A DNA stretch of 64,000 bases, taken from the IMG/VR virus record IMGVR_UViG_3300042483_000388. One strand, written 5' to 3'. Both the position numbers and the translations under genes were made by a program. The stretch comes from a virus (lineage: Duplodnaviria > Caudoviricetes). The notes under the pieces were generated by a model. That model ran no database searches and was not told the DNA's origin. It was given only the letters and a program-made list of their open reading frames with translations. Positions 7,174-41,565 of the stretch are shown piece after piece. Each line of letters begins with the position of its first letter. Within the stretch, counting starts at the first letter, position 1.

Positions 7174-7828
7174 GTTTTAGTTCTTTTATTAGTTTACCAA
7201 ATTCTGAAAGTGAAGTAATCTCATATTCAGAATTGATGTGTTTATTATACTCGGTGGTAAATTTAATGACCACCTTTCCTTCGTGTTTTTCTAATAGTAA
7301 GGTAGGATCCGCAGTAAGTAAAACATCTACTTGATCCCACATAGATTTTTTTGTAATTTCACTAAAGAAAAATACCTTTTCCAATAAACACCCAAATTTA
7401 GATAGGAAGAATAATGAGGATGGTTTTGATTTACCAATCTCACTTGACACAATCATTAATTCATTCTCATCTCTTAACTCAAGATACAAATCGTTTAACA
7501 TGTTAAATGTTGTCATCTCCGTTGATGGGGCGTGTCCGAATAATTCCATCGTATATTCCTCATACATAAATGAAAATAATTCCTCACTATTACGAAACGC
7601 AAAATGTTTGGTCAAGTCTAAAGAGTCAACGTCGGTTAGTTTTTTATATTCAAAAGGAATTACGTCGGACACCTCCAATTCAGTGTTTCCAGATATGTCC
7701 ACATTATATGTTTTACCTAAATACCCATCCGGATCACTTTCAATTAAGTGTTTTTCGTAAAGTTGTTCAAATTTGGTAATAGTATCCCTTAATACCCCAT
7801 TAATATCAATCCCTATTCTCTTTGTCAT
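7163..7828 (-). CDS. HAD-family 5'(3')-deoxyribonucleotidase-like protein
   Basis: RIGIDINGVLRD (motif I with DxN in place of DxD), IVSSE, and a C-terminal tail with KFTTEYNKH. Confidence 0.65.
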   Translation of the reverse strand: MTKRIGIDINGVLRDTITKFEQLYEKHLIESDPDGYLGKTYNVDISGNTELEVSDVIPFEYKKLTDVDSLDLTKHFAFRNSEELFSFMYEEYTMELFGHAPSTEMTTFNMLNDLYLELRDENELMIVSSEIGKSKPSSLFFLSKFGCLLEKVFFFSEITKKSMWDQVDVLLTADPTLLLEKHEGKVVIKFTTEYNKHINSEYEITSLSEFGKLIKELKHVV

Positions 7829-8552
7829 ATTCTGATAATATTTTAGTAATTAATGGGTTTCTAACGTTCTTAGCGTCCCTAAAATCATAAACACCAATGT
7901 CCGGAACATTACTGAATTTTTGTATTGCGTCGTATAGTCCTGATTGTTTTTTATCTTTATACCTATCCGTCTGCTCAAGATCACCAGATATAAAGAATTT
8001 ACTATTATACCCTATCCTTGTCAATAGTAGTTTCATTTGATTGGGGGTTGAATTTTGAGCCTCCTCAAAAATTAGGATTGAGTTGTCTATATTCATACCT
8101 CTCATATAGGCTAAAGCAAACACCTCAATAATTTCGGCCTTCTTTAATTCTTCCCTTGATTCTTTACCAATAATTTTATTTAATAAATAATAGGAGGGGA
8201 ATATATATGGATCCAATTTTTCTTCAAGACCTCCGGGAAGGCTACCTAATTTCTCTTCTGCCTCAACCGCCGGTCTAACAATTATTATTTTCTCATATGA
8301 GTTGTTTGTATCCACTAAAAGATCGACTGCCGCCTTCATTGCGATAAAACTCTTACCAACACCTGCAGGTCCCGAAGCAACCGTAATTTGATTATTCTTT
8401 AAAATGTTATAATAATCTTCTTGGTGTTCAGATAAAAATTTATTTTTTTGTTTCCGTTTAATTATTGAGTTAATTAAATCCTTTTTTGAAAAAGGTTTAG
8501 AATCTTTAGTCTCCAATTTAATTATTGGATCTGGTTTTTTTCTTATTGCCAT
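7806..8552 (-). CDS. phoH: PhoH-family ATPase
   Basis: GPAGVGKS Walker A, IIIVRPAVE, LGSLPG, LAYMRG, EEAQN, GDLEQTD and RNPLI. Confidence 0.95.
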   Translation of the reverse strand: MAIRKKPDPIIKLETKDSKPFSKKDLINSIIKRKQKNKFLSEHQEDYYNILKNNQITVASGPAGVGKSFIAMKAAVDLLVDTNNSYEKIIIVRPAVEAEEKLGSLPGGLEEKLDPYIFPSYYLLNKIIGKESREELKKAEIIEVFALAYMRGMNIDNSILIFEEAQNSTPNQMKLLLTRIGYNSKFFISGDLEQTDRYKDKKQSGLYDAIQKFSNVPDIGVYDFRDAKNVRNPLITKILSEYDKENRD

Positions 8553-8555
8553 ATT

Positions 8556-8999
8556 TTAATTAATAAATCTTTTTTTACTCTCACCATCATAGATTTTTTT
8601 TCTAAGGTTTGTTGTTGAGTAATTATGGTCACGTTTATTGTATATAATTCTAATCCCCCTCTTTTGACAAATACTTTTTCCCGTGTAGTCAATGTCTTTA
8701 TAATCCTCACCAATTATTCGGACATCTAAATCCAATGAACTAAAAAGTTCTTCTAACTCATCTTCAGTATTGTAGGGGATTATCTTATCAACATATTTAA
8801 CCGCATCCAATTGCAAGTATCTTTCTACAAGGGATTGGATTGGTTTATTTTTATCTTTTCTATCTATTGTAGGATCGTTCTGTAATGCACATATTAAATA
8901 ATCACAATGTTTTTTACATTCTTCTAACATAATGATATGTCCTGTATGTAGGAGATCAAAAGTACTACATGTTATTCCTACCGTTTTATTTTTTTCCAT
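8556..8999 (-). CDS. Cytidylyltransferase (TagD / glycerol-3-phosphate cytidylyltransferase-like)
   Basis: TCSTFDLLHTGH (HIGH motif), ERYLQL and RDHNYSTTNLR. Confidence 0.9.
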   Translation of the reverse strand: MEKNKTVGITCSTFDLLHTGHIIMLEECKKHCDYLICALQNDPTIDRKDKNKPIQSLVERYLQLDAVKYVDKIIPYNTEDELEELFSSLDLDVRIIGEDYKDIDYTGKSICQKRGIRIIYNKRDHNYSTTNLRKKIYDGESKKRFIN

Positions 9000-9966
9000 A
9001 ATATTCTAACCAATAATTTATCATTTCATCTAACATTGTTTCAAATGTATATTTTGGTTTCCATTTTAACTCATTTCTAAGTTTAGATGAATCACCTTTT
9101 AAATCATAAAGTTCCTCAGGTCTAAAATGTTTTTCATTGACTTCAATATAATTAGTAAAATCTAAACCTATTTTTGAAAATGTGTAGTCACATAAATCTT
9201 TTACTGAGTGAGATATACCGGTAGAGCACACATAATCATCTGGTTTGTCAGTTTGTAACATCATCCACATTGCTTCAACATAATCTTTAGCGTGACCCCA
9301 ATCTCTTGTAGCGTCTAAATTGCCTAAATATAACTTATCTTGTAACCCTAATTTAATTCTAACCGCAGCTTTTACGACTTTATTGGTTACGAAATTTGTC
9401 CCTCTTCTTGGTGATTCGTGGTTGAATAATATTCCATTCCATATTTTCATACCATAAGAGTTTCTATAATTTCTACAAATGTTGTATGAAAATACTTTAG
9501 CACAACCATATGGTGAGACCGGATTTAATTGTGTTGTTTCTCTTTGGAACCCGTCATCATCAATAGTATTACCAAACATTTCTGATGATGAAGCTTGATA
9601 AATTTTTATTTTTGTGTCAACTAATTTACATGCTTCTAAAACGTTTAATGTTCCTAAACCAGTTACATTTGCCGTATATATTGGTTGGTCAAAAGATATT
9701 CTAACGTGAGATTGTGCTGCCAAATTATAAACCTCTTGAGGTTTAATTTCACTAATTACTCTAATTATTGATGATAAGTCGGTTAGATCTGCGTAATGTA
9801 AATTTAATTTATCGAAAACACTATCTAATCTTGATGTTTGATTTTCAGATACCGAATTTCTTTTTAAAGTTCCATGAACTTCATACCCTTTTTCTAATAA
9901 TAACTCAGCAAGATATGATCCGTCTTGACCATTTATCCCTGTAATGAGTGCCACTTTTTTATCCAT
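8986..9966 (-). CDS. gmd: GDP-mannose 4,6-dehydratase
   Basis: ALITGINGQDGSYLAELLL, YNLAAQSHV, YQASSSEMFG, SPYGCAK, ILFNHESPRRG and RDWGHAKDYV. Confidence 0.97.
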   Translation of the reverse strand: MDKKVALITGINGQDGSYLAELLLEKGYEVHGTLKRNSVSENQTSRLDSVFDKLNLHYADLTDLSSIIRVISEIKPQEVYNLAAQSHVRISFDQPIYTANVTGLGTLNVLEACKLVDTKIKIYQASSSEMFGNTIDDDGFQRETTQLNPVSPYGCAKVFSYNICRNYRNSYGMKIWNGILFNHESPRRGTNFVTNKVVKAAVRIKLGLQDKLYLGNLDATRDWGHAKDYVEAMWMMLQTDKPDDYVCSTGISHSVKDLCDYTFSKIGLDFTNYIEVNEKHFRPEELYDLKGDSSKLRNELKWKPKYTFETMLDEMINYWLEYYGKK

Positions 9967-11107
9967 TTACGATATTTGTAATTATTTTAATTTGATCTTC
10001 AGTTAAATCTTGGTGGTTTGGTATATAAAACCCAAATTCATTAATTTTTTCACAATTTGGTAAACTAACTTTACCAAATCTTTCATACCACATTGGTTTT
10101 TTTGACATATCACCAGCAATCAAAGGTCTAACTTCAATTCCTTCTGACGTTAATCTATCAACTATTTCTTTTTTATTTTTGGACACAATAGGTAGTGCAA
10201 AATTTGAAACAAAATCACCCTCTCTCTCAAATAAATTTAATTCGTTAATCTTAATTAAATTATTATATTGTTTAAAATTAATGTTCCTTAATTTTGAATA
10301 GTTGTCTAATTTGTCCAATGATCTAATACCAATAAATGCCTGTAAATCAGTTGATCTTAAATTAAGTCCTGGTACGTAAAAATTATATAAAGAATCAAAA
10401 TCACTAACTGAGTATTTTTCCCTTAATTCTTTTTGTTTCCATTCAGGTAGATCCCTATCCCAACCGTGACTCCTCATCATTAGTAATAGGTGGTAAAAAT
10501 CCTCATCATTTGTGTTAATAAATCCACCCTCAATTGTACTTAAGTGATGACCAAAATACATTGAGAAAAATGATGCGAACCCAAATGAACCTAAATATTT
10601 TCCTTGGAATTTAGATCCCATACTTTCACAAACGTCCTCAAATAATATAACTTCGTATTTTTCACAAAGTGATAAAACTTTATCCATCTCAGGAACTAAA
10701 CCTAATGGGGAAACAAGTATCATAGATGAAGGATTATGGATTTTAAATAAATCTTCAAGGTAATTTAAGTCACACGATAAATCGGTTAAGTTACAATCAC
10801 ACATTATTGGTTCCATACCTAATAAAATTGGTGAACTAACGTCAGTTGCCCAACTCAAACTTGGGATAATAATCTTTTTATTTTTTATCTTTTTACTCTC
10901 GAGTAATGCCGCCAATGCCAATAGAATTGCTGACGATCCTGAGTTAACATAAACAGAATATTTTGTCCCTATTTTTTTTGCCCATTTAGATTCTAATTCC
11001 CAAGTCAAATCACCCTTAGTTAATCTTGGTATTTCTGATTGACTTAACCACTCAATCAAAGAATTAATATCATCTTTGTTTATGGTGTCACTTACTAATT
11101 TTATCAT
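9959..11107 (-). CDS. colD: PLP/PMP enzyme of the DegT/DnrJ family; ColD-like GDP-4-keto-6-deoxymannose 3-dehydratase
   Basis: VNSGSSA, EDVCESMG, SMYFGHHLSTIEGG (His at the usual Schiff-base Lys position), MRSHGWDRDLP and IEVRPLIAG. Confidence 0.75.
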   Translation of the reverse strand: MIKLVSDTINKDDINSLIEWLSQSEIPRLTKGDLTWELESKWAKKIGTKYSVYVNSGSSAILLALAALLESKKIKNKKIIIPSLSWATDVSSPILLGMEPIMCDCNLTDLSCDLNYLEDLFKIHNPSSMILVSPLGLVPEMDKVLSLCEKYEVILFEDVCESMGSKFQGKYLGSFGFASFFSMYFGHHLSTIEGGFINTNDEDFYHLLLMMRSHGWDRDLPEWKQKELREKYSVSDFDSLYNFYVPGLNLRSTDLQAFIGIRSLDKLDNYSKLRNINFKQYNNLIKINELNLFEREGDFVSNFALPIVSKNKKEIVDRLTSEGIEVRPLIAGDMSKKPMWYERFGKVSLPNCEKINEFGFYIPNHQDLTEDQIKIITNIVNG

Positions 11108-11178
11108 GATCTTTTTTTTATTAATCGTAATTGATGATTGATTTAAGTAAATTAAAGATAAATCTATTTTTTATTGTC

Positions 11179-11952
11179 TTAAACGTCTTCCCATGTGTGT
11201 AATGATATTGACACTGAATCATTATTTTTATAGTCATCTAAAATTTTAATAATTTCTTGTTCGGTATAATTTAAAGGATATGTCTTACCCATTAATGTTG
11301 TTTGTACGTTTTTTTCTATATGATACCCTAAATCATGTTTGAGGCACCAATTTGCATAACAATCTTGTTCAGTAGGGTAACTACTTAAATTAATGTTTTC
11401 ACATGCAACTTTAAAAAAATGATTAAAATTATCGTAATTTCCTAACATTTTTTTGGTTAGTCTTTTATCGTACATCATAAAATCAATTATAAATGAGTCA
11501 TCACCAACTCTTTCTAAATCAAACATTTTTTTACTAAAATTAAAATAAGGTTGATGATAATGAGAATGTTGGGGTGACATAAAAAATATTGGTTTATTAT
11601 CAGTTGTAAACAAATTAATAGGTTTTACAAAAAAGTTATCCGACTGTATGTCTAAATAATAGTTTTGTTCGGTTACATCTTGAAATAAGGCGATAAACGT
11701 TGCGAAACACCAATTTTTTCTATACGGGATATTATTTCTGTCACACCCTGGAAATACATCATCATCTTTAACTACCACAATTTTGTCTTCATAATCAGTG
11801 CCCTCAGGTTTATACCCGTCAGGATTTATTAAGAAGATTTTACTTGGTTGCGGATTTAAAAATTTTATCGAATTTATTACTAATTTTAATTTTACGTAAT
11901 CTTTCGTTCCTGATTTTATGGTAACATCATACTTATTTGATTCTTTCATCAA
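11179..11952 (-). CDS. Putative GT-A fold glycosyltransferase
   Basis: YYLDIQSDNFFVKPINLF followed by PTEQDCY; located inside the sugar cassette. Confidence 0.55.
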   Translation of the reverse strand: MMKESNKYDVTIKSGTKDYVKLKLVINSIKFLNPQPSKIFLINPDGYKPEGTDYEDKIVVVKDDDVFPGCDRNNIPYRKNWCFATFIALFQDVTEQNYYLDIQSDNFFVKPINLFTTDNKPIFFMSPQHSHYHQPYFNFSKKMFDLERVGDDSFIIDFMMYDKRLTKKMLGNYDNFNHFFKVACENINLSSYPTEQDCYANWCLKHDLGYHIEKNVQTTLMGKTYPLNYTEQEIIKILDDYKNNDSVSISLHTWEDV

Positions 11953-12871
11953 TTAAACTTATTTGTTTTTTATATTCTAACAATCCTTCAAATGTTTCTG
12001 GGGAAATATAGTTGATAATACTCATAGGGTTCTCCTTTAAATCTTTTAATAGATTTAAAGTGTGTACATTACCTAATATCTCGTCCTTAAAATCTTTTGT
12101 TTCATCATGAACATGTCTATCGTGTCTTACATCGACTTCAGTGTATACCATTTTAAATCCACAAGATTGGTTATAAAAAGATGCCCAAATATCTGTCATT
12201 CTTCCTGTTCTAGCCATCATAAAATATTCTTTGGATGCTTTTCTTGATAAAATAGTATTTTGTGAATTAAATGGTGAAAATGTGTTTGTTGAGATTGGGA
12301 AACCAATTTTTAAAAAGTCACATTTTGGTAAATGTTCCATCCTACAAATTGCATCAATATCTGGTTCATTATTCCAAAGACCTGATTGTACATCGGGTAT
12401 AACCACTTTTTTATTCATTACATATTCATTTCTATTTTTTAATAATTGTAATGGATATCCTCTATGCCACAATTGAGGGTAATTTGTATGGTAAAGAGGG
12501 TCAAAACATAATCTATTAGTTTCATAATGAAAAACTTCAACTTCCTTACCTATTAAAATATTTTTACCCCAATTTTCTAAAGGGACATTATCATCATCAA
12601 CAATAGCGATTAAATCGGCACCTCTTTCATATGCTTCTAACACACCTAAAGTTTTTCTTTCGGCGCAATTCCACCCAATAAGGTTACTTAAAGTTGGCCA
12701 TTTGGTACTTTGATATTCAATTGTTAAATAATCACAATTTATCTCATCATATAATTCTTTTGGTGTTTTAAGATCTCCAACAACAATAAAATCCCACCCT
12801 TCCATGTTTGAATACTTAATTGTTGCCTCAGTTGGTGCGCTTATAGTCGTTGTTACAATTATTTTTTTCAT
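11933..12871 (-). CDS. STELLO/DUF288-like glycosyltransferase
   Basis: IIVTTTI..PT, WDFIVVGDLKTP, IAIVDDDN, WHRGYPL, PFNSQNT and GRMTDIW. Confidence 0.8.
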   Translation of the reverse strand: MKKIIVTTTISAPTEATIKYSNMEGWDFIVVGDLKTPKELYDEINCDYLTIEYQSTKWPTLSNLIGWNCAERKTLGVLEAYERGADLIAIVDDDNVPLENWGKNILIGKEVEVFHYETNRLCFDPLYHTNYPQLWHRGYPLQLLKNRNEYVMNKKVVIPDVQSGLWNNEPDIDAICRMEHLPKCDFLKIGFPISTNTFSPFNSQNTILSRKASKEYFMMARTGRMTDIWASFYNQSCGFKMVYTEVDVRHDRHVHDETKDFKDEILGNVHTLNLLKDLKENPMSIINYISPETFEGLLEYKKQISLIDERIK

Positions 12872-13782
12872 AGTTCGTTTTTATAAGTATTATAATGACA
12901 TTTAATTCCTTCTTTTAAAGTTGTAAATTTATAATCAGGTATTAGTTTTCTAAACTTAGTAATATCCAAATCTTTCCTATATTGACCATTTGGTTTTGAT
13001 TTATCGTATCTTATCTCAAGTTTTGAGTTTGTTGCTTCTAAAGCAATTTCAGCAATTTGGTTAATTGTAATATTTTCCTCAGTTGCTAAATTAAATGATT
13101 CGGTTATATCTCTGTCAATAATTATTTTTATTATATTTGCAATATCATTTGCGTGTATAAATTGTCTTAGGGATTCTCCATTACCATATAAAGTTATATG
13201 ATCTTCATTATTTTTATTTGCTTCAAAAATTTTTTTAATAAGTGCTGTCACAAAATGACTTCTATTTTCGTCGTCTTTGTCTGATTCACCATATAAATTA
13301 CAAGGCGATATGTAACTATAATTGGTTTCATATTGTTCATTACAGGTGTCAATTTGAACCGCAAGAGATCTTTTTGCCATACCATATGAAAAGTTAGTTT
13401 TAGTTGGTGGTCCATTATGTAAAACATCCTCTTTCATAGGGTATTCATCCACTGTGTCAGGAAATATACAACTACTTAATACACCTAAAAATCTTTTTAC
13501 ACGATTAAGTCTTGCGTACTTAACCATTAATGTATTCATTAAAATATTGTCCTCAAAGTACTCTAAAGGGTGGTTAATATTATCAATTATTCCGCCTACC
13601 CTTGCGGCGAGATGTACCACATAGTCAGGTTCTAATTCTTTATATAATCGTATTACTTCCGATTCTAAAATTAAGTTATAATCTTTTGATGAAAGAAAAG
13701 TCGCATTTGGCATAATTTTTTTTAAGTGATTACCGACCAAACCAGAACCACCTGTTACTACTATTTTCATATTTTTATCCAA
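12868..13782 (-). CDS. fcl: GDP-L-fucose synthase / GDP-colitose reductase (Fcl/ColC family)
   Basis: VTGGSGLVG, HLAARVGGI, LSSCIFP, SYGMAKR (YxxxK), PCNLYG and RQFIHANDIA. Confidence 0.9.
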   Translation of the reverse strand: MDKNMKIVVTGGSGLVGNHLKKIMPNATFLSSKDYNLILESEVIRLYKELEPDYVVHLAARVGGIIDNINHPLEYFEDNILMNTLMVKYARLNRVKRFLGVLSSCIFPDTVDEYPMKEDVLHNGPPTKTNFSYGMAKRSLAVQIDTCNEQYETNYSYISPCNLYGESDKDDENRSHFVTALIKKIFEANKNNEDHITLYGNGESLRQFIHANDIANIIKIIIDRDITESFNLATEENITINQIAEIALEATNSKLEIRYDKSKPNGQYRKDLDITKFRKLIPDYKFTTLKEGIKCHYNTYKNEL

Positions 13783-14537
13783 TTATCACAATAAATATCA
13801 TTAGTGGGAACGTCCAATAATTTCCCAAACCAAATAGATGGTGATATTATTTTTTTATTTATGTTATTATTTAACCAAGCTCCCCACCAACTAAATGTTG
13901 AGTTTGATATTATATTATGATCACATAACGACATCATATATAAGTCATTAATATTACCTTCATTTTCAATATAATTGATGTTATTAAAATTTAAATTGTT
14001 TTTACACCAATTTATATCATCAGAAAAAATTGCAACATTTATATTGTTATTGTTTATTATGTCATAACCATCTTTATAATAATTAATTGTTTGTGTCGGG
14101 TGGTGATCTGGTAGGTTTAAATAATCACCTCTTCTAACATGAATACATAATGTCGGTTCATTTAAAAATATATATTTTTTAAAAAAATATTCTTTTAAAT
14201 TTTCAGGTATACTTAATTCTTCTCTAATTATTTTTTTGTTTTCCTTAAAATATTTTTCAGACTGCCAATAACCATCTAAATATGAGTTATCGTTAATTTC
14301 TTTGTATGTAAAATTGTCAATAACTCTGTTTAGTTGTGTATTATTTGTTGAGGAGTTAATTATTATATTTTTGAATTTATCTAATTCCATTCCTCGACTA
14401 TTCACATCAAAACTACTTTTACCAATATGTGTTAAATCAAAATAATATTCGGTATTGTATTTAATTGAAAGATTTCTAGTGACTGCCCATTGAAATAATT
14501 GATTACCCAACCCTCCTTGTAGTTTTGTTGTTATCAT
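13767..14537 (-). CDS. GT11 alpha-1,2-fucosyltransferase (or colitosyltransferase)
   Basis: GGLGNQLFQ, GYWQSEKYF, HVRRGDY and DLYMMSLCDHNIISNSTFSWWGAWL. Confidence 0.93.
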   Translation of the reverse strand: MITTKLQGGLGNQLFQWAVTRNLSIKYNTEYYFDLTHIGKSSFDVNSRGMELDKFKNIIINSSTNNTQLNRVIDNFTYKEINDNSYLDGYWQSEKYFKENKKIIREELSIPENLKEYFFKKYIFLNEPTLCIHVRRGDYLNLPDHHPTQTINYYKDGYDIINNNNINVAIFSDDINWCKNNLNFNNINYIENEGNINDLYMMSLCDHNIISNSTFSWWGAWLNNNINKKIISPSIWFGKLLDVPTNDIYCDNWIKI

Positions 14538-15184
14538 AATATTTTAGTTAAATCGTATTGTTTAGTGTTAAAATTACTATTACTATGTACTCTATGTAAC
14601 AATAAATTTTCTGGTATATTAAAAAATGTTTTATTATTTCTCATTAACCTTAACCAAAAATCATAATCCTCAATCCCGTCCAAATCCTCTCTCCACCCAT
14701 CAATTTCTAAAGAGTCTGATTTTTTAAAAATCGCACTAGTATTAGCAATTTGATTTACACCCAAAAATGAATTTTTCTTAATATCTTCATCTTGTGTTGA
14801 TAATAAAGGGGATCCTATGATAATATCGTTACTATCTATATAGTTAATAAAAGTTCCTATAACATCATAATTATTAATATAATTTAATTGTTTTTCTAAT
14901 TTAGTGGTAACCCAAATATCATCATCATCTTGTATGGCAATCCAACCATATTTTGATTCTATTAATAGTTTGTTTAATGTTTTTGATTTACCCTTTTCAT
15001 CACCGTAATCAAATATTCTAATTCTACCATCGTTAAATTTATTTACAATTTCTTTTGAGTTGTCTGTTGTACCATTAAACCCAATTAATAATTCAAAATC
15101 TTTAAAAGTCTGATTTAATATGGACTCAATTGATTTTTTAATAAATTTTTCACCGTTATATGTTGCTAGTAATATTGTTACCAT
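14534..15184 (-). CDS. GT2 glycosyltransferase
   Basis: TILLATYNGEKFI, IAIQDDDDIW and EDYDFWLR. Confidence 0.9.
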   Translation of the reverse strand: MVTILLATYNGEKFIKKSIESILNQTFKDFELLIGFNGTTDNSKEIVNKFNDGRIRIFDYGDEKGKSKTLNKLLIESKYGWIAIQDDDDIWVTTKLEKQLNYINNYDVIGTFINYIDSNDIIIGSPLLSTQDEDIKKNSFLGVNQIANTSAIFKKSDSLEIDGWREDLDGIEDYDFWLRLMRNNKTFFNIPENLLLHRVHSNSNFNTKQYDLTKIL

Positions 15185-15187
15185 AAC

Positions 15188-15886
15188 TTAATTTCTAAAA
15201 TATTCAAACCCACCATATTTTCGTTTATCTAAAAAAAATATTTTACTATGATCGTGTTTATGGTTTTCATCTGCGGCATAACCTAAAGGTAAAATTAATG
15301 TTGGTGTGTTATTTAAAAAATACCTATTTAAATGAGATTCATCGTGCCATATTGCAATAATACCATTTTTTAGGTCTTTATTGATGTTAGATTCAATCGT
15401 TCTTGATAGGTTTAAAAATTCGGAACTGATTCCACCAAAAAATCCACCACAAAAATATTGATTACTTTCCCCATTTGTAATGTATGCGGTGGAATTTGGG
15501 TTTCTTTCGGGTGTACCTTCACCATTCCCCAAATAAGGGTGTAACGTACCAATAATATTAGATAATATATCTTCAGGGTTTATCTGACCAACAAACAAAC
15601 TATCAGCGTCAATATAAAATGAATAATCATAATTAGAAATAATTTCCTCACATTCATTGAAAAATTTAAACCGGTGTAAGGTTGAGCTAGGCCAAGGGTT
15701 ATGATCCACTTTATGGATTATGTGATCACCCTCAATTTTAATGTCTTCTTGGTCCGTATGAATTAAATAAGTTTTACTAACACTTGGTAAAAAAAAATTT
15801 TCAATGGACGGTATTAACTTATCCAAAAAGAAAATGTATTTATTTGTTGCAATGATATTAACTACTATTTTTAAATTATTTTTCAT
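15188..15886 (-). CDS. GT6 glycosyltransferase (ABO blood-group transferase family)
   Basis: IATNKY, WPSSTLHRF, YIDAD (DxD), GTLHP, PERNPNSTAYI, YFCGGFFGG and WHDESHLNRYF. Confidence 0.9.
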   Translation of the reverse strand: MKNNLKIVVNIIATNKYIFFLDKLIPSIENFFLPSVSKTYLIHTDQEDIKIEGDHIIHKVDHNPWPSSTLHRFKFFNECEEIISNYDYSFYIDADSLFVGQINPEDILSNIIGTLHPYLGNGEGTPERNPNSTAYITNGESNQYFCGGFFGGISSEFLNLSRTIESNINKDLKNGIIAIWHDESHLNRYFLNNTPTLILPLGYAADENHKHDHSKIFFLDKRKYGGFEYFRN

Positions 15887-15910
15887 TATCAGTGTATGTT
15901 ATATTATTTA

Positions 15911-16540
15911 TTACTTTATCAACCATTTATAATCTGTGACCTTATTTTCTATATCGCTAAAACTAACTCTTTGGGTTGCAATTACAGGGTAAAAAGAATA
16001 AACATTTAATGATTTTTGTAATTCAGAATATATCACATCTAATGCGTTATCGTATTTTTTTAATCTTTCTAATATAACATTAAATGATTTTTTATTTATT
16101 GCAACACAGTGAGTGCTAAATGTGTTATGTAATTTGCAAACTTTTTCATTTACTATTAATGGAGGTTTTATTCCCATATGTGTATTATGGTTCCCACCAA
16201 AATATAACATATCCCAATCTTTTGGTAACATATTAAAATATTCGTCCATGTCCCCAACTTGTTTTTCAAACTCAACGTCGTCCTCTAATATTAATATTGA
16301 GTTATAACCATTTTGAATTGATTCCTCTAATATTTGTATGTTTGTTAAAACTAATGCCAACCTTGATGGTGTCATAAAACCTGATGAAGTTTGGGTTAAC
16401 TCTTTTCCGTCTACAGCTTTAAATCTATTAACGTTTGTTAGTTTGTTTTTTTCAAATTCAACAACACATTCACTCCACCTATCTGGTCTACGATCTAAAT
16501 TTACGCAATATGTTTTATCAAAAAATTCTGTTATTTTCAT
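15911..16540 (-). CDS. GT25 glycosyltransferase
   Basis: YCVNLDRRPDRW, RFKAVDG, ILILEDDVEF and WDMLYFG. Confidence 0.88.
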   Translation of the reverse strand: MKITEFFDKTYCVNLDRRPDRWSECVVEFEKNKLTNVNRFKAVDGKELTQTSSGFMTPSRLALVLTNIQILEESIQNGYNSILILEDDVEFEKQVGDMDEYFNMLPKDWDMLYFGGNHNTHMGIKPPLIVNEKVCKLHNTFSTHCVAINKKSFNVILERLKKYDNALDVIYSELQKSLNVYSFYPVIATQRVSFSDIENKVTDYKWLIK

Positions 16541-17100
16541 TAGTGTCTTACGTTATAATATACCTCAGGAGTAATAACCCAATTATCTGTTAATTTTTTT
16601 AACTTCATTAAAAAATCAAAGTCTTCTCCATCTCGATTATTATCAAATAATAAGTTATCAAATTTATTTTTGTAACAAAAAGATATTCCAACACGACCAA
16701 AAATAATGTCTTTAATTTTTTGTGGTGGTAACACCAAACCATTTTGATATTTCATTCTCCAAACAACAAAATCATTTTCTAAATATTTTTCACTTAGTGT
16801 TGAGATGTAATTTACGTCTATTGTGTCATCATCATCTAAAAATCCAATCCATTCTGTTTTAACCATTTTAATTCCTACGTTTCTAACCAAACCTGATTGA
16901 CCATTTGCCGGGCCAACCAAACCTGTTTTTGGTATCTCTAAAGTTTTTATTCTTTCGTCTTCAAATCCTTTCCCAACAACGCCATCATATAATATAATTG
17001 CGTTCCAATTTGGATTTGTTTGGTTTAATAACGAATCTACGGTTCTTGTGATTGTTGATCTGTTAAGTGAGGGGATAATAAATGTAATAAAAGGTTCCAT
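16540..17100 (-). CDS. GT2-like glycosyltransferase
   Basis: FIIPSLNR, RNVGI, WIGFLDDDD and EDFDFL. Confidence 0.8.
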   Translation of the reverse strand: MEPFITFIIPSLNRSTITRTVDSLLNQTNPNWNAIILYDGVVGKGFEDERIKTLEIPKTGLVGPANGQSGLVRNVGIKMVKTEWIGFLDDDDTIDVNYISTLSEKYLENDFVVWRMKYQNGLVLPPQKIKDIIFGRVGISFCYKNKFDNLLFDNNRDGEDFDFLMKLKKLTDNWVITPEVYYNVRH

Positions 17101-17101
17101 A

Positions 17102-18601
17102 CTAATTAGTAATTACTGTGTATTTTTTAAATTTTTCAAAATTTTCTTTAATAAATGGGTAAACATGTTCATTAAAATCTTGCATCATTTCTAGCTTATT
17201 GTTCTCAACTTCTCTTGTTTGAGATTCGTGGTGATAAGCAACACATTCTCCATTACAATAATTATAATACCCATTTTTTATAAGTTGTAAACCTAAAATC
17301 GCATCCTCATAACAATGTCTAAAGGACTCGTTAAAGCCACCCATAGTTTCAAAAACTTTTTTTCTTACCATCATTAACGCTGCGGTGTTTCCGCCAACCT
17401 CATCAATACCCGTATTAAATTTATAATATGTTTCCCTATTTAAATGGTCTAATGTATATGCCTTATGTTTTTGTCTCAGAATGATTGAAATACCATCGTG
17501 TTGTACTGTGTTGTTTGAAAAATGTAATCGACACCCAACGGTACCAACCCTATCTTTTGTTTTGAATGTTTTTAACATTCCTGAAATTACATCATTTAAT
17601 AACTCAATATCGTTATTACAGAATAATAAAAATTCATAATTGTTTGGTAAATTTTTTACGACATCATTATTTATTTTGGCATAATTGTAATAATCATATT
17701 CAATTAGAGTTATAGATTTAATATTTTCTTTAATCCAATTTTTTTCCTCATCTGTTGATCCTGTATCCGCAATAAAAATATCATATAGGTTTGAATCACA
17801 ATATTTGTGAATTGAGTCGACACATTCTTTTAACATCTCCACCTTACCTTTCGTTGGTATGATTACCGCAACTTTACCAACATTTTTTATTGGTTTGTAT
17901 TTTACTTGTGGAACATAAACTTCGGATGGTTTAAGATCCAATGGTAATACGTAACCCCACTTCTCAAGGAACTTTACCTTACTATCATAAAATTCTTTAT
18001 TTGGTTGACCAACAGATTCGTGAGTTATTTCAAATGATGAGGTTATACCTAATTTAACGTTATCCAAATAATTTGGCAAACAGAATAGGTGGTCGTAAAA
18101 GTGGAACTTACCAATCGTCTCATCAAAAGTATGTTTGATTTTTGTTTTATCAAATGCGATAAATAACCCATCAATTGTAACAACGGGAATTAAGAATGGT
18201 AATTTTGGTGAGTATTTGTTTATCCATTTTTTTTGACCTTCCGGATGGTGATAAACTTGACCCACCATTGTGTAGTGCATCCTATCCCAATAAACTCCAG
18301 TGTCAGGAAAATAACAAGATCCGGCTTTTCCAATTATACCGAATTCGGGGTTATTAGAAAAATCGTTTAACAATTTTTTGCCCCAATTTTTTTCAAGTTT
18401 TATATCATTATGACAACAAACAACAATATCATAAATTGATTCTGTAATCCCTGAATTATAAACACTAGATAAAGAATATTGGTTATGATTAACGTATTCT
18501 AAAATCTGAACATCTTTAACGCCAACGTTTTGTAACAAATGTTGTTTAAATTTGTTATTGTATTCTTGGTCCTTATGTGTTGAGTAAACTATTGTAATCA
18601 T
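17102..18601 (-). CDS. Two-domain glycosyltransferase (GT-A + GT2)
   Basis: Domain 1 has VCCHNDI, IDGLFIA and FHFYDH. Domain 2 has VIIPTK, LLFCNNDIE, GGFNESF..CYED and AYHHESQTR. Confidence 0.85.
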   Translation of the reverse strand: MITIVYSTHKDQEYNNKFKQHLLQNVGVKDVQILEYVNHNQYSLSSVYNSGITESIYDIVVCCHNDIKLEKNWGKKLLNDFSNNPEFGIIGKAGSCYFPDTGVYWDRMHYTMVGQVYHHPEGQKKWINKYSPKLPFLIPVVTIDGLFIAFDKTKIKHTFDETIGKFHFYDHLFCLPNYLDNVKLGITSSFEITHESVGQPNKEFYDSKVKFLEKWGYVLPLDLKPSEVYVPQVKYKPIKNVGKVAVIIPTKGKVEMLKECVDSIHKYCDSNLYDIFIADTGSTDEEKNWIKENIKSITLIEYDYYNYAKINNDVVKNLPNNYEFLLFCNNDIELLNDVISGMLKTFKTKDRVGTVGCRLHFSNNTVQHDGISIILRQKHKAYTLDHLNRETYYKFNTGIDEVGGNTAALMMVRKKVFETMGGFNESFRHCYEDAILGLQLIKNGYYNYCNGECVAYHHESQTREVENNKLEMMQDFNEHVYPFIKENFEKFKKYTVITN

Positions 18602-19203
18602 AAACCAGTACTTCCAAAACCTTTATCTTCCCTATCTTTGGGTGTTAATTCAACTTTCTCAATAAGGTTAACCCATTTTCCGGCAACAACTGGACATAAT
18701 ACAGCTTGTGCCACTTTTTGTCCTTTTTGTATTTTAATTCTATCTTTTGTTGTGTTAAATAAGATAACTTGTATCTCTCCGGTATAATTTTGATCTACGG
18801 TTCCCGGAGAATTTAAAACCATCAACCCTTGTTTTAACGCTAAACCACTTTTTGATCTTATTTGTATTTCATGTCCCTCAGGAATATCCAAATGTATCCC
18901 TGTTGGTATTAACTTTCTATCAAACCCAAATATCCAAATATCTTCTGAGGAACATAAATCCATACCAGAATCAGACTGATATGCGTATGATGGTGTTATG
19001 GCATCAGGATTTGATTTTCTATAACCTAAATCAAGTTGTGGGATGTAATTATCCATGTCGTCCTCCAAGTCTTTTAAATCAATACCGAAAGAGTCCATTA
19101 TTGTTTTGTAATCAATTTCACCATCATCAATATCGTCCATGTCATCTAATAATCTTATTAAACTATTAATGTCATCTTCATTTATATTTTCATCTTCTAT
19201 CAT
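18598..19203 (-). CDS. dut: Trimeric dUTPase with an acidic N-terminal extension
   Basis: DSGMDL, RSKSGLA, NSPGTVDQNYTGEI, KVAQAV and REDKGFGSTG. Confidence 0.95.
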   Translation of the reverse strand: MIEDENINEDDINSLIRLLDDMDDIDDGEIDYKTIMDSFGIDLKDLEDDMDNYIPQLDLGYRKSNPDAITPSYAYQSDSGMDLCSSEDIWIFGFDRKLIPTGIHLDIPEGHEIQIRSKSGLALKQGLMVLNSPGTVDQNYTGEIQVILFNTTKDRIKIQKGQKVAQAVLCPVVAGKWVNLIEKVELTPKDREDKGFGSTGL

Positions 19204-21140: not shown

Positions 21141-21282
21141 ATTTTTTTATAATTTTTTTTAAATAGGTAAGATCATAAAAATCACTTTCCCACATTATTT
21201 CTAAAATATAACCTTTTTCTATTGTTAAGTCAATCTTGTTTTTATCATACTCCCATAATTCTTTTGCCGTCTTTTGTTTTTT
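21124..21282 (-). pseudogene. C-terminal remnant of a Vsr/PD-(D/E)XK-type free-standing endonuclease
   Basis: KTAKELWEYDKNKIDLTIEKGYILEIMWESDF resembles the 'WES/WED' C-terminus of Vsr-like phage endonucleases. The upstream part of the frame runs into a terminator and has no credible start. Confidence 0.5.
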
Positions 21283-21327
21283 AATTAAAAATAGACCAGT
21301 CTTATCAAAAGGTAAAAATATAAACAC

Positions 21328-21356
21328 AAAAAAAACCCCCACTTTAGATGGAGGTT
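21328..21356 (-). terminator. Rho-independent terminator
   Basis: Minus strand reads AACCTCCA-tctaaag-TGGGGGTT followed by a T run, just downstream of ORF 21377..22036. Confidence 0.7.
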
Positions 21357-31738: not shown

Positions 31739-34700
31739 ATGCCAGTATATAATAGATTAACAGATAGGTCAAAAGTTTCGGCGGTTACGTTAAACGACAT
31801 TTTTCATGTTGTGGTTACTGGTGATACATCACAAAGTCCACAAGGTTCATCATATTATGCACCTTTAAGTGATTTACAAACAATATTAAGTGGGTCAACA
31901 GGACCAAGCGGTACCTCAGGTACAAGCGGAATAAATGGAACATCAGGGTCAAATGGAACTTCAGGAACAAATGGTACTAATGGAACTTCAGGAACAAATG
32001 GAACATCAGGAACCAATGGAACATCAGGAACCAATGGAACATCAGGAACCAATGGAACATCAGGAACCAATGGAACATCGGGTTCAAGTGGTACTAACGG
32101 AACGAATGGGACTAGCGGAACTTCAGGTACTTCAGGCACTAATGGTTCATCAGGTACTAATGGTTCATCAGGCACTAATGGTACGTCAGGCACTAATGGT
32201 TCATCAGGCACTAATGGTACGTCAGGTACTAATGGGACAAACGGAACATCAGGAACCTCTGGTTCAAGTGGGACATCAGGAACCTCGGGTTCAAGTGGTA
32301 CTAATGGTACGAGTGGGGTGAATGGTACTTCAGGTACTGACGGGACTTCTGGCACAAATGGTACGGACGGAACTAGTGGTACAAACGGAACAAGTGGAAC
32401 ATCTGGAACGAATGGAACGAATGGAACGAATGGGACAAGCGGCACAGATGGAACATCAGGAACAAATGGTACAAGCGGAACTAACGGAACTAGTGGTACA
32501 AACGGAACTTCAGGAACTAATGGAACTAATGGAACTAGTGGAACATCAGGGACAAACGGTACGAATGGAACATCAGGGACAAATGGTACTAGCGGTACCG
32601 ACGGAACATCAGGTACAAATGGAACTAGCGGTAGTTCAGGAACAAACGGAACATCAGGAACAAATGGAACTAGCGGTACTGATGGAACGAATGGCACATC
32701 GGGCACATCAGGAACTAATGGCACATCAGGAACTAATGGAACTAATGGGACAGATGGAACTAGTGGAACAAATGGGACTTCTGGAACTAATGGAACATCA
32801 GGGACTAATGGAACATCAGGGACTAATGGAACTAATGGAACTAATGGAACTAATGGGTCTTCGGGTTCAAGCGGAACTAATGGGACATCTGGTACTAACG
32901 GAACTTCGGGAACAGACGGAACTAGTGGAACTAATGGAACATCAGGATCAAGTGGTACAAATGGTACTAGCGGAACTAATGGGACTAGCGGAACTAATGG
33001 CACTAGCGGAACATCAGGATCAAGTGGTACGGACGGGACTTCAGGTACAAATGGAACTAGTGGAACTAACGGTACTTCGGGAACGGACGGGACTTCAGGT
33101 ACAAATGGAACTAGTGGAACTAACGGTACTTCGGGAACAGATGGGACATCAGGTACCAACGGAACATCAGGAACTAGCGGTACCGACGGAACATCAGGTA
33201 CAAATGGGACCAGCGGAACAAATGGAACTAGCGGTAGTTCAGGAACATCAGGAACAAACGGGACTTCAGGAACTAACGGAACATCAGGAACAAATGGTAC
33301 TGATGGTACATCGGGAACAAATGGGACTAGCGGTACTGATGGTACAAACGGAACTTCAGGAACAAATGGTACAAACGGAACTTCAGGGGCTAATGGATTT
33401 TCAACAGGTTTAGTTTATTATTTTAACCCTTCATCAGCATCTACAATTCCAACTTACTATGTTATGGATAGAAACATAGTGATAGGTGCCGGAACAACAT
33501 TAACTGCAACAGGGGGTGGAACACAACTAATAGGATCATTTTCAACAATTATTGGAGACCCTGGAATAACTACAATACCGTCAGGAAATTGGAACTTTGA
33601 GAATTACGTTGGTATGAGTTCCAATGGTGGTACTCCAAATTTATATGCTGATATATATATTAGAACAACAGGTGGTACTGAAACTTTAATTGGATCAAAT
33701 AGTGTATTACCCCACTCCATTACCGACGGTACGGTTGTGGAACTTTATTTATATTCGGTACCTGTATCCGCAACAACGGTAAATATTAATGATAGAATAG
33801 TCGTTAAGTTCTATGCAACCTCATTAGGTGGAAGAACAATGACTTGTTATTTTGAAGATGCGACAATTGCTCAGGTAACCACTTCATTATCACCATTTAT
33901 TGCGGGAACATCAGGTACAGATGGTACTTCAGGCACTAACGGTACTAGTGGTACAAATGGTACAAACGGAACTTCTGGGACTAATGGATCTAGCGGTACA
34001 AATGGAACTAACGGAACAAGTGGTACTAATGGAACCTCAGGAACTAATGGTACGGATGGTAGTTCGGGAACAAGCGGAACTTCAGGTTCATCAGGGACTA
34101 GTGGGACAAATGGAACAGATGGGTCTTCAGGTTCAAGCGGTAGCTCAGGCACTTCAGGATCTAATGGGTCTTCAGGAACAAGTGGTAGTAACGGAACAAA
34201 TGGAACGAATGGAACTTCAGGGACTAATGGAACAAACGGAACATCAGGGACTAATGGAACATCAGGAACAAATGGTACGAACGGGACTTCAGGTACAAAT
34301 GGAACTTCGGGAACAAATGGGACAAACGGAACATCAGGTACGAATGGTACTAGCGGTACTAGCGGAACTAACGGAACTAATGGAACTTCAGGTACAAATG
34401 GTACAAATGGTACGAGCGGGACCAACGGAACTTCAGGAACAAATGGTACAAATGGATCGTCAGGAACTAATGGAACTTCAGGTACAAACGGAACAAATGG
34501 AACTTCAGGTACTAATGGTACGAGCGGAACAAACGGAACAAGTGGATCATCACCTGCAGTACCAGGTTCAGATAATCAAGTTTTAACGTCAAACGGATCA
34601 GGAGGAATAGTTGCCGAATCTCTTTTAACATTTGATGGTACAAAATTAAGTGTATTGTATCAGGCTGGTGATGAAGGTGGGGAAATCCTATTAAACAAAC

Positions 34701-40196: not shown

Positions 40197-40247
40197 ACTA
40201 TAAAAATAAAACATACATTTTAATTGTGAAGTTCATATCATTATAGA

Positions 40248-41195
40248 ATGAAAGATGTTTGTGTTGATGTGTTAGGATGTAGATCGTTAGGGGATACCTT
40301 AGCCGTTACACCAACTTTAAGAAAACTTTATAATTCTTACGGTAAAAAAATATCTGTCGCAACTCATCACCCCGAAATTTTTAAAAACAATCCTTACGTA
40401 GATAATATTTTTAATGAAATTACAGACGACATTAAAAATGATTATGAAGTATTTGAATCCTTTAATATTGGATACCACCCAAACGGTGTTTGTTATAAAC
40501 ATAACGCAATGGATATTAGACAATTTCATGCGGTTAATTTAGGGTTTATGTTGACCAGAGATGAAATGTCAATGGACTATTTTCCTGATGAGGTAGAATT
40601 AATTGAGGGGTTACCTGAAAAATATGTTTTAATTCACCCCGTTCAAAATTGGAATTCAAGAACATGGGATGAAAAAAAATGGCAAATGTTAACAAAACTC
40701 TTAAATGAAAGAGGTATTGCCGTTATTTCTGTTGGAAAAGATTCATCAGAACTTGGTGGTTCAAATGTGGATAAACCCGTTTTTAATTTTAATATTGATA
40801 TTGGTTTGAATTTAATGAACCAAACAACCTTATCTCAAACATGGTGGCTAATTAATAGTGCAATGTGTTTCATTACTATGGATTCAGGATTACTTCATTT
40901 AGCAGGAACAACAGACTCAGAAATAATCCAACTTGGAAGTTCAATACATCCTCAATTTAGAGCACCATATAGAAAAAATAATCAAGGTCATAAATACCAT
41001 TATGTTCTTGGTGGTTGTGGTTTACATTGTGCATCAGATATTAAATACGGAGTTAAAGAATGGAAATCAATACAAGGTATACCATCACTCGTTAATTGTT
41101 TAGAAAGAAAAGAAACATTTGAATGTCACCCCAACCCAATTATTATTTATAATAAAGTTTTGGAAATATTAGATTTAGAATATTTATGTAGATAA
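40248..41195 (+). CDS. GT9-like (heptosyltransferase-like) glycosyltransferase
   Basis: SLGDTLAVTPTLRKL, VLIHP, RTW, FITMDSGLLHLAG and a Cys-rich C-terminus. Confidence 0.85.
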   Translation: MKDVCVDVLGCRSLGDTLAVTPTLRKLYNSYGKKISVATHHPEIFKNNPYVDNIFNEITDDIKNDYEVFESFNIGYHPNGVCYKHNAMDIRQFHAVNLGFMLTRDEMSMDYFPDEVELIEGLPEKYVLIHPVQNWNSRTWDEKKWQMLTKLLNERGIAVISVGKDSSELGGSNVDKPVFNFNIDIGLNLMNQTTLSQTWWLINSAMCFITMDSGLLHLAGTTDSEIIQLGSSIHPQFRAPYRKNNQGHKYHYVLGGCGLHCASDIKYGVKEWKSIQGIPSLVNCLERKETFECHPNPIIIYNKVLEILDLEYLCR

Positions 41196-41210
41196 TCACA
41201 TTTTAATTAC

Positions 41211-41510
41211 ATGGCAAACCAAATTCAAATAAATTCAATATCTGGAACTTCACCATTTGATATCTATGTATGTGATGTAACCATATCGTATTGTTTTTTT
41301 GTTTCAGGAATCACCACAACACCATATACGTTTAATGTTCCTCCACCTTTAGAGTCTATAACACCAATTATTTTAAAAATTATAGATGCTAATGATTGTG
41401 AAAAAATATTCTTACTATCTTGTGGGGAAATATACGGAAAAGAATTTGAAGGTTTTGAAGTATTTTTATTTCAAGACTCATCAATTTTTTTATTCGAAGG
41501 TCCTCCTTAA
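41211..41510 (+). CDS. Small beta-rich protein (99 aa), possibly structural
   Basis: Clean ORF preceded by TATTTAT. Confidence 0.55.
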   Translation: MANQIQINSISGTSPFDIYVCDVTISYCFFVSGITTTPYTFNVPPPLESITPIILKIIDANDCEKIFLLSCGEIYGKEFEGFEVFLFQDSSIFLFEGPP

Positions 41511-41565
41511 ACTATTAATATTCATATTTTTTTCTTTTCTATTATTATTATGGAAATAACCAAAT

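Follow-up and report, generated by a model that had tools for sequence, protein, structure and literature searches.

A GT6-GT2-GT11 gene cassette and a putative GDP-colitose route in a hypervariable glycan island of a lake-water jumbo phage

Introduction

What would a bacteriophage build with two glycosyltransferases (GT) of the families GT11 and GT6, and on which surface would it put the product? The question is raised by an uncultured tailed phage, IMG/VR record IMGVR_UViG_3300042483_000388, of which a stretch of 64,000 nucleotides (the window, below) was analysed. An earlier reading of this DNA, made from the sequence alone, had described GT11, GT2 and GT6 genes at 13767-15886 beside genes for GDP-fucose or GDP-colitose, and had proposed as their product a blood-group-A/B-like or colitose-substituted epitope. 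The coordinates, gene order and motifs of that sequence-only reading are all borne out by minus-strand open reading frames (ORFs) and Pfam matches, and the adjoining sugar-nucleotide genes are real, encoding Gmd, a ColD-like protein and an Fcl/ColC-like protein.

Here we argue that the GT6-GT2-GT11 cassette and the colitose route together build a branched A-like cap, a reading to which we give a rough probability of 0.55. The likeliest form of the cap is GalNAc-alpha1,3-(Col/Fuc-alpha1,2)-Gal-beta-R (GalNAc, N-acetylgalactosamine; Col, colitose; Fuc, fucose; Gal, galactose), which would be A-like and not a true blood-group antigen, and in which colitose probably replaces fucose. From observed families, residues, folds, gene coupling and linkage we infer in which order the enzymes act, which sugars they take as donors and what they make. 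Judged by their profile scores, the assignments of the three proteins to GT6, GT11 and GT2 are strong and not a matter of chance.

Results

The GT6 gene (15188..15886, minus strand) encodes a protein of 232 aa that belongs to PF03414 (3.3e-34; 118.5 bits against a cut-off of 25) and represents a minimal, soluble, DXD-type homologue of the ABO enzymes, which are retaining alpha1,3-Gal/GalNAc-transferases. Its score of 177.4 bits against NCBIfam NF041524 is below the cut-off of 250, which places it outside that curated bacterial subfamily. The top-scoring PDB structure is BoGT6a (4ayj, 7e-34), ahead of human GTA/GTB (~4e-28) and alpha3GalT (~1e-21). An AlphaFold (AF2) model computed from 35 homologues has a predicted local distance difference test (pLDDT) score of 91.7; it superposes on BoGT6a (4cj8) with a template modelling (TM) score of 0.92 and a root-mean-square deviation of 1.9 A, and on GTA/GTB and alpha3GalT with TM scores of 0.81-0.90. 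The model has a GT-A fold with the topology of GT6 enzymes.

The enzyme had been called a DxD type with a WHDESHLNRY segment, and both are present, as D93-A-D95 and as residues 180-189. The counterparts of D93-A-D95 are N95-A-N97 in BoGT6a and D211-V-D213 in GTA; DXD is the metal-binding motif of vertebrate, phage and Parachlamydia GT6 enzymes (PMC3516806, PMC3961637). Residues were counted in an alignment of 237 GT6 relatives that combines viral loci, bacterial loci and metagenome proteins. DxD is present in 34/37 viral loci, 63/80 bacterial loci and 120/120 metagenome proteins, and the bacterial count means that DXD-type GT6 is no longer rare in bacteria. W180-H181-D182-E183 and the C-terminal K221 are intact, the catalytic Glu being equivalent to E303 of GTA and E192 of BoGT6a. 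Both E183 and W180 are conserved in all but one of the 237 relatives (one gap) and K221 in all but three; D93/D95, H116, Y144 and R231 are likewise conserved. Two viral GT6 proteins from IMG/VR (L017 and L018) carry NXN in place of DXD, and their donor positions are Gln/Cys; viral contigs thus also include GT6 enzymes of the metal-independent type.

Whether this GT6 would act on a fucosylated galactose can be judged from the residues that bind 2'-fucosyllactose and from those that separate fucosyl-acceptor enzymes from alpha3GalT, as listed by Thiyagarajan et al. (PMC3516806). In the phage enzyme A1 is His (H116; Gln in alpha3GalT) and A7 is Leu (L219; Trp in alpha3GalT), which is the fucosyl-acceptor type, and the other residues of that type are kept (T125, Y144, W180, E183, K221 and the C-terminal Arg). 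The set is conserved in most of the 237 relatives. In the donor pocket, Cys and Gly occupy the positions of GTA 266 and 268, the two by which the human A and B transferases differ; the Gly is found in 221/237 relatives and also in the GalNAc-transferases GTA and BoGT6a. By analogy with these enzymes the pocket favours UDP-GalNAc and argues for it, less likely UDP-Gal, as the donor, and hence for an A-like rather than a B-like product.

Of the same kind is PaGT6 of Parachlamydia acanthamoebae, the only characterised minimal GT6 of the DXD type, which needs Mg/Mn and resembles the enzyme of the Prochlorococcus phage P-SSM2 in size; it uses H-type acceptors only, transferring GalNAc to the H trisaccharide and to 2'-fucosyllactose, and is inactive on N-acetyllactosamine (LacNAc) (Thiyagarajan et al. 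2012, PMC3516806). PaGT6 is a bacterial enzyme, and the closest bacterial homologues of the window GT6 (~40-45% identity) come mainly from Dependentiae/Babeliales and from Chlamydiae (Parachlamydiaceae, Simkaniaceae), intracellular associates of protists. The bacterial GT6 loci (L193-L272) also include some of Bacteroidota, Melainabacteria and Verrucomicrobiota. BoGT6a (4ayj, 4ayl, 4cj8) is 33-34% identical to the phage enzyme and shares with it the catalytic Glu, the His/Thr/Tyr/Trp acceptor residues and the C-terminal Lys and Arg; BoGT6a converts 2'-fucosyllactose into A antigen (PMC3516806). It differs in being an NXN, metal-independent enzyme, where the phage GT6 has DAD, and in having Gly at A2, where the phage GT6 has Tyr.

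The GT11 gene (13767..14537, minus strand) encodes a 256-aa putative GDP-deoxyhexose alpha1,2-transferase, fucosyl- or colitosyl-, with a PF01531 match of 9.4e-28 (97.7 bits against a cut-off of 23.9). It contains the motifs GGLGNQLFQ, HVRRGDY and STFSWWGAWL, and H133-V-R135-R136-G-D-Y139 is invariant among its relatives, the closest of which, in L108, is 69% identical. By sequence it has no NCBIfam and no PDB match; its AF2 model (pLDDT 93.6) has a GT-B-like fucosyltransferase fold and finds GDP-fucose transferases in all of the top 35 folds (NodZ, FUT8, AtFUT1, POFUT1/2).

Between the two lies a gene (14534..15184, minus strand) for a 216-aa GT2, by family an inverting beta-glycosyltransferase (PF00535, 4.8e-22). 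Among solved structures it is most like the GT2 domain at the C terminus of chondroitin synthase K4CP (1.7e-14), a match that does not reveal the sugar. Orthologues of at least 100 bits occur in 7/26 GT6 loci and in 1/159 loci that lack GT6 (p = 3.6e-6), so that this GT2 is a specific companion of GT6, tighter than GT11. In a 634-kb phage (LR745206.1) the GT2 counterpart is 69% identical and the GT6 49%. The GT2 is more conserved than the GT6 that it accompanies, and counterparts lie at L001 13361-14011 and L188 10691-11341.

Linkage was assessed by counting GT11 within 10 kb of the anchor gene in IMG/VR viral loci and within 8 kb in bacterial genomes. A GT11, always on the same strand, accompanies GT6 in 19/24 GT6-anchored viral loci (20/25 by hidden Markov model), against a background of 37/79 Gmd-anchored loci (Fisher p = 0.009); in bacteria the count is 36/80. 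In the reverse direction, just 4/80 GT11-anchored loci carry GT6. Viral GT6 is thus rarely without GT11 and GT11 mostly without GT6, an asymmetry that is expected if GT6 acts on the GT11 product.

The same asymmetric dependence weighs against a different account, in which GT6 and GT11 would be independent steps of a larger oligosaccharide (~8-10 sugars), acting on different residues and forming no A/B-like branch. So do His at A1 and Leu at A7, and so do the bacterial GT6 assays that we found in the literature, which used 2'-fucosylated acceptors; only PaGT6 was also tried on an unfucosylated acceptor, and it was inactive. In favour of independent steps are the roughly 9-10 GT domains of the island, the presence of GT11 without GT6 in about half of such islands, the atypical acceptor loop of the phage GT6 subclade, and the use of non-fucosylated acceptors by the vertebrate GT6 paralogues alpha3GalT, iGb3S and Forssman synthase. 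On balance we think it distinctly unlikely that the two enzymes work apart.

If GT11 and GT6 act in succession, which deoxyhexose would be placed first? Three genes downstream of the cassette point to colitose. Gmd, a GDP-mannose 4,6-dehydratase (8986..9966, minus strand), matches PF16363 at 7e-123 and TIGR01472 with 413.7 bits against a cut-off of 415. The next gene (9959..11107, minus strand) encodes a DegT-family protein that we assign to ColD, the His-type pyridoxal/pyridoxamine phosphate (PLP/PMP) enzyme GDP-4-keto-6-deoxy-D-mannose 3-dehydratase: it matches E. coli O55 ColD (2gms) at 5.3e-56, versus 8.5e-26 for perosamine synthase, and it retains in '...FGHHLSTIEGG' the equivalent of His188, which replaces the PLP lysine and whose position is marked by the H188N mutant entry 3b8x. 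His stands at this active-site position in 81/81 relatives from the fetched loci. The third gene (12868..13782, minus strand) encodes a reductase of the Fcl family, a putative ColC-type GDP-4-keto-(3,)6-deoxymannose 3,5-epimerase/4-reductase, which scores 190.8 bits against NCBIfam Fcl (below the cut-off of 500) and matches GDP-L-fucose synthases of the PDB at 9e-53. It falls in a clade of 24 rows with support 100, and 23/24 come from loci with a His-type ColD.

By homology, Gmd, the His-type ColD and the ColC-type reductase constitute a GDP-colitose route. The earlier statement that the GT11 WbgN of E. coli O55 transfers colitose is confirmed, GDP-colitose being its natural donor and GDP-fucose being tolerated (PMC12723683). 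With this precedent beside the route, the phage GT11 more likely transfers colitose than fucose. E. coli O55 is in this respect a close model, having a His-type ColD (WbdK, 2gms) and, by family likeness, a GT11 (WbgN, colitose alpha1,2 on Gal). It differs from the window in having no GT6, and thus no further alpha1,3 substitution. ColD, GT11 and GT6 occur together on about six viral contigs and in 0/80 bacterial loci.

The combination bears directly on the original proposal of a true H-to-A/B logic, in which GT11 would use GDP-fucose and GT6 would make the authentic A/B trisaccharide, a logic known from E. coli O86 and Bacteroides ovatus. In its favour, most of the GT11 enzymes characterised so far transfer fucose, and WbgN itself tolerates GDP-fucose; many viral loci with GT6 and GT11 have Gmd and an Fcl-like gene without ColD; and ColC-type enzymes, being homologues of Fcl, might also reduce the un-dehydrated intermediate. 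In the window itself, however, a His-type ColD is encoded between Gmd and the reductase, the reductase belongs to the ColD-linked clade, and a second Fcl is not seen in the 64 kb. A colitose route with a reductase of this clade makes true H antigen not the likeliest intermediate, and we regard authentic A/B chemistry here as unlikely. The acceptor residues, the linkage and the colitose route lend partial support to the earlier idea of an A/B-like or colitose-substituted epitope, with two amendments: true H antigen is not the likeliest intermediate, and an A-like product is favoured over a B-like one.

The A-like cap would then arise in four steps. Gmd, the His-type ColD and the ColC-type reductase would act in this order to give GDP-L-colitose, and possibly some GDP-fucose; a beta-galactoside would be supplied, perhaps by the intervening GT2 or by a GT25 encoded upstream; GT11 would add the deoxyhexose alpha1,2 to this beta-galactoside; and the DXD-type, presumably metal-dependent GT6 would attach GalNAc, or less likely Gal, alpha1,3 to the galactose that carries the deoxyhexose.

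The cassette forms part of a block of ~17 co-directional minus-strand genes that runs from 21140 down to 7163 with overlaps or with gaps of at most 71 nt. Transcription would pass through genes for a GT4-like protein, exonuclease, dUTPase, a double GT2, a GT2, a GT25-like protein, GT6, the 216-aa GT2 and GT11, and then through those for the Fcl/ColC-like reductase, a STELLO/RGP-like and a DUF6492-like candidate, the ColD-like protein, Gmd, a cytidylyltransferase-like protein and PhoH. The GT6/GT2/GT11 junctions consist of a 4-nt overlap or a 3-nt gap, and GT11 shares 16 nt with the Fcl/ColC-like gene that follows it downstream.

Directly upstream of GT6 is the GT25-like gene (15911..16540, minus strand; PF01755 8.2e-8, 32.8 bits against a cut-off of 24), whose protein has zero sequence relatives in the PDB. 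It is preceded by genes for a 186-aa GT2 and a 499-aa double GT2 (16540..18601, minus strand), with matches to PF00535 and PF13712. A 312-aa protein (11933..12871, minus strand) is a possible further glycosyltransferase of STELLO/RGP (GT75)-like type: it has no match in Pfam or NCBIfam, and an atlas feature search places it at 0.97-0.99 to viral clusters in which just 10-48% of members carry PF03385 or PF03214. The neighbouring 257-aa protein (11179..11952, minus strand) has no Pfam match; mostly viral atlas clusters with PF20102 offer DUF6492 as a lead only. Between Gmd and PhoH, at 8556-8999, lies a gene for a 147-aa cytidylyl/adenylyl-transferase-like protein, whose top NCBIfam matches, RfaE domain II and glycerol-3-phosphate cytidylyltransferase, are both far under cut-off; from this family resemblance it may activate an additional sugar or polyol.

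Sigma70-like and terminator-like sites lie ahead of the block near 21200-21350, but they are consensus matches only. Their frequency is at chance level, so the sequence does not tell when the block would be expressed. Nor is the T4 late-promoter word TATAAATA enriched (18 found versus 14.6 expected).

The interval between dUTPase and PhoH (window 7806-19203) is a hypervariable glycan island, measuring 5.7-14.8 kb across ~40 loci that share the exonuclease-dUTPase ... Gmd/PhoH backbone and belong to jumbo phages of 144-321 kb. GT11 is found in most of these loci and ColD in about half, while GT6 is found in one other contig only; GT11, ColD and GT2 content differs from contig to contig (e.g. 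L108, L116, L135/L137, L008). With such variable content the island behaves like an O-antigen locus to which GT6 is a rare add-on. On contigs from several samples, with GT6 proteins 77-80% identical to that of the window, the order GT6-GT2-(218 aa)-GT11-ColC-ColD-Gmd-PhoH is kept. A different arrangement is seen at L191 8576-10187 (GT6 80% identical), where two tandem GT11 paralogues follow the GT2 and where a hexapeptide acyltransferase, a short DegT fragment and an epimerase replace ColC/ColD/Gmd downstream.

The phage itself is a T4-like jumbo phage from lake water. Its window encodes a tail sheath (57292-60645), tail tube, baseplate, family-B DNA polymerase, PhoH and dUTPase at a guanine-cytosine (GC) content of ~30%. 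The tail sheath has solely distant T4-like matches, and a megablast search with 20 kb of the window gave zero matches at the DNA level among GenBank phages. The DNA of the cassette is present in 20 lake-water metagenome runs, which may be the source samples and hence are habitat evidence only; no RNA dataset carrying it is listed. Elsewhere in the window, a 736-aa protein (50450-52660) contains complete N and C domains of an Fe/Mn superoxide dismutase at residues 166-354, inside otherwise unmatched sequence.

Discussion

Several observations weigh against the A-like cap. In the acceptor loop of the phage GT6, H-P-Y-L-G, A2 is Tyr and the loop is 3 residues shorter than in BoGT6a/GTA, where A/B-type enzymes have Gly or Ser at A2 (H-P-G-F loop) and alpha3GalT has Trp; the nearest relatives of the phage GT6 have His at A2, and Gly or Cys stands there in GTA, in BoGT6a and in most of the remaining viral and bacterial relatives. 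With Tyr at A2 and a shortened loop, the acceptor of the phage GT6 could differ. The enrichment of GT11 near GT6 is modest, the loci are not phylogenetically independent, and GT11 is present in ~50% of islands anyway; moreover, the flanks of 5/25 viral and 44/80 bacterial GT6 loci hold no GT11, so GT6 is not strictly tied to it. As to colitose, the GT11 tree shows no clean colitose clade: the ColD label is clustered but requires 28 changes, and the 7-row clade that contains the window is mixed. A ColD-specific signature was sought among the GT6 pocket residues and none was found, and the literature that we searched shows no GT6 that accepts a 3-deoxy-fucose branch.

The pairing of GT11 and GT6 is not a new feature of phages. 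P-SSM2 (Prochlorococcus phage; GenBank 2005) has had both annotated since 2005, a GT11 (PSSM2_265) and a GT6 (PSSM2_268) two genes apart, with a GT25 (PSSM2_271) and GT2 alongside, and many cyanophages have the two adjacent: 72 phage records have a tblastn match to the GT6 and 99 to the GT11; most of these phages are cyanomyoviruses, and the two genes often stand side by side. Equivalent clusters are carried by P-SSM5, S-CAM9, Bellamy, ACG-2014f, S-8S53/55, B3/B23 and DSL-LC03. A phage GT6 of the DXD type has been mentioned before, and many such genes in marine metagenomes have been reported (PMC3516806, PMC3961637). In the literature searched we found no paper on the GT11 and GT6 pair or on H-to-A logic in phages.

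The likeness to P-SSM2 is close. Both phages are T4-like, both have a minimal DXD GT6 (41% identical) with a same-strand GT11 a few genes away, and P-SSM2-type clusters also have GT2, GT25 and sugar-nucleotide epimerase/dehydratase genes alongside, the GT25 of P-SSM2 standing next to its GT6 block. The differences are that P-SSM2 comes from marine cyanobacteria and the window phage from lake water; that P-SSM2 has no ColD-type colitose route in the stretch examined; that two hypothetical genes, and not the 216-aa GT2, separate its GT11 from its GT6; and that its GT6 has Ala where the window GT6 has Cys, at the 266-equivalent position. What the present locus adds, then, is the colitose supply, the GT2 that travels with GT6, an acceptor loop that is altered in its GT6 subclade, and a hypervariable island in a jumbo lineage without lipid-carrier export genes.

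Among bacteria, E. coli O86 offers a close parallel for the order of steps. Its enzymes WbnJ and WbnK belong to GT2 and GT11, and its WbnI, a GT6, is a Gal-transferase. By CAZy family the likeness lies in the sequence beta-Gal, alpha1,2-Fuc, alpha1,3-Gal, which yields a blood-group B-like unit. Unlike the phage, O86 uses fucose and depends on WecA, Wzx and Wzy for assembly on undecaprenyl-PP; in the window and in related phage genomes none of the three is found.

This difference leads to the question of where the phage glycan would go. Transmembrane segments are not predicted in any island protein. Pfam scans of the window ORFs gave no match to an initiating phosphoglycosyl transferase, flippase, polymerase or ligase, ABC-transporter families not having been searched, and five related phage records, of which two are 100% complete, have no match to PF02397, PF00953, PF04932 or PF01943, while control genomes score. 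Soluble enzymes and the lack of lipid-carrier genes point to assembly in the cytoplasm, with the sugars added either to a lipid-linked precursor that the host supplies or straight to a phage protein. We give the host envelope and phage proteins roughly equal weight as targets.

The first possibility, which we hold tentatively, is that the glycan is built on the host precursor and ends on the host envelope (lipopolysaccharide (LPS), capsule or S-layer glycan) during infection, where an altered cell surface might, for example, block superinfection or keep progeny phages from adsorbing. The 'LPS genes' of P-SSM2-type cyanophages are usually read in this way (PMC9602691). Such a target agrees with the position of the island among genes of nucleotide metabolism (exonuclease, dUTPase, PhoH) and not among structural genes, and with the sigma70-like and terminator-like consensus matches ahead of the block. 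Without carrier or export genes in the window or the five related records, however, all later steps would have to be supplied by the host, and the short time frame of a lytic infection also weighs against an envelope target.

The second possibility, a somewhat doubtful one, is a variable glycan coat made in the cytoplasm on virion proteins, such as fibres or Thr/Pro-rich tracts. It fits the solubility of all island enzymes and a lineage without lipid-carrier export genes, and the same window encodes a collagen-like protein of 1723 aa, with GT9/GT4/methyltransferase fusions and a PF11397 gene on its flanks. Against it, the GT6 island and the structural genes lie 16-26 kb apart on opposite strands with no direct link, and neither GT11 nor GT6 is known to prime proteins, which would leave the start of the chain to another enzyme.

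The collagen-repeat protein (Pfam Collagen 1.6e-117) is encoded in a stretch of 41-44% GC. Adjoining its gene (window 31739-36910 and 37272-44474 for the whole group) are those for a 980-aa GT4+GT9+FkbM-methyltransferase fusion, a GT9, an HtrL/YibB-domain protein and a PF11397 'GlcNAc' protein (8e-65), of the GT60-type protein O-GlcNAc (N-acetylglucosamine) transferase family.

The most specific version of a virion target would be GalNAc-alpha1,3-(colitose-alpha1,2)-Gal, a structure undescribed in nature, made in the cytoplasm and displayed on virion proteins, with the dUTPase-PhoH island as the 'serotype' locus of the phage. We consider this improbable. If it were true, the determinant would be a 3-deoxy-fucose analogue of blood-group A, carried for example by the collagen-like fibre or by Thr/Pro-rich tracts, and the island would serve to diversify the sugar coat of the virion. 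The further suggestion that the epitope acts as molecular mimicry against grazers, lectins or competing phages is speculation.

Taken together, the sequence comparisons make the chemistry proposed for the cassette well motivated, and the value of the locus lies in the colitose link, in the co-travelling GT2 and in the hint of a glycan that bypasses lipid-carrier export, the pairing itself being not new. Glycan clusters are frequent in aquatic phages, but biochemical work on a cluster of the GT6/GT11 type is not known. If the chemistry is as predicted, the two transferases would be compact soluble enzymes (232 and 256 residues) for making A-type or colitose-substituted determinants in vitro. 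In the lineage itself, islands that naturally have or lack GT6, and have or lack ColD, form a series in which the purpose of phage glycans may be probed.

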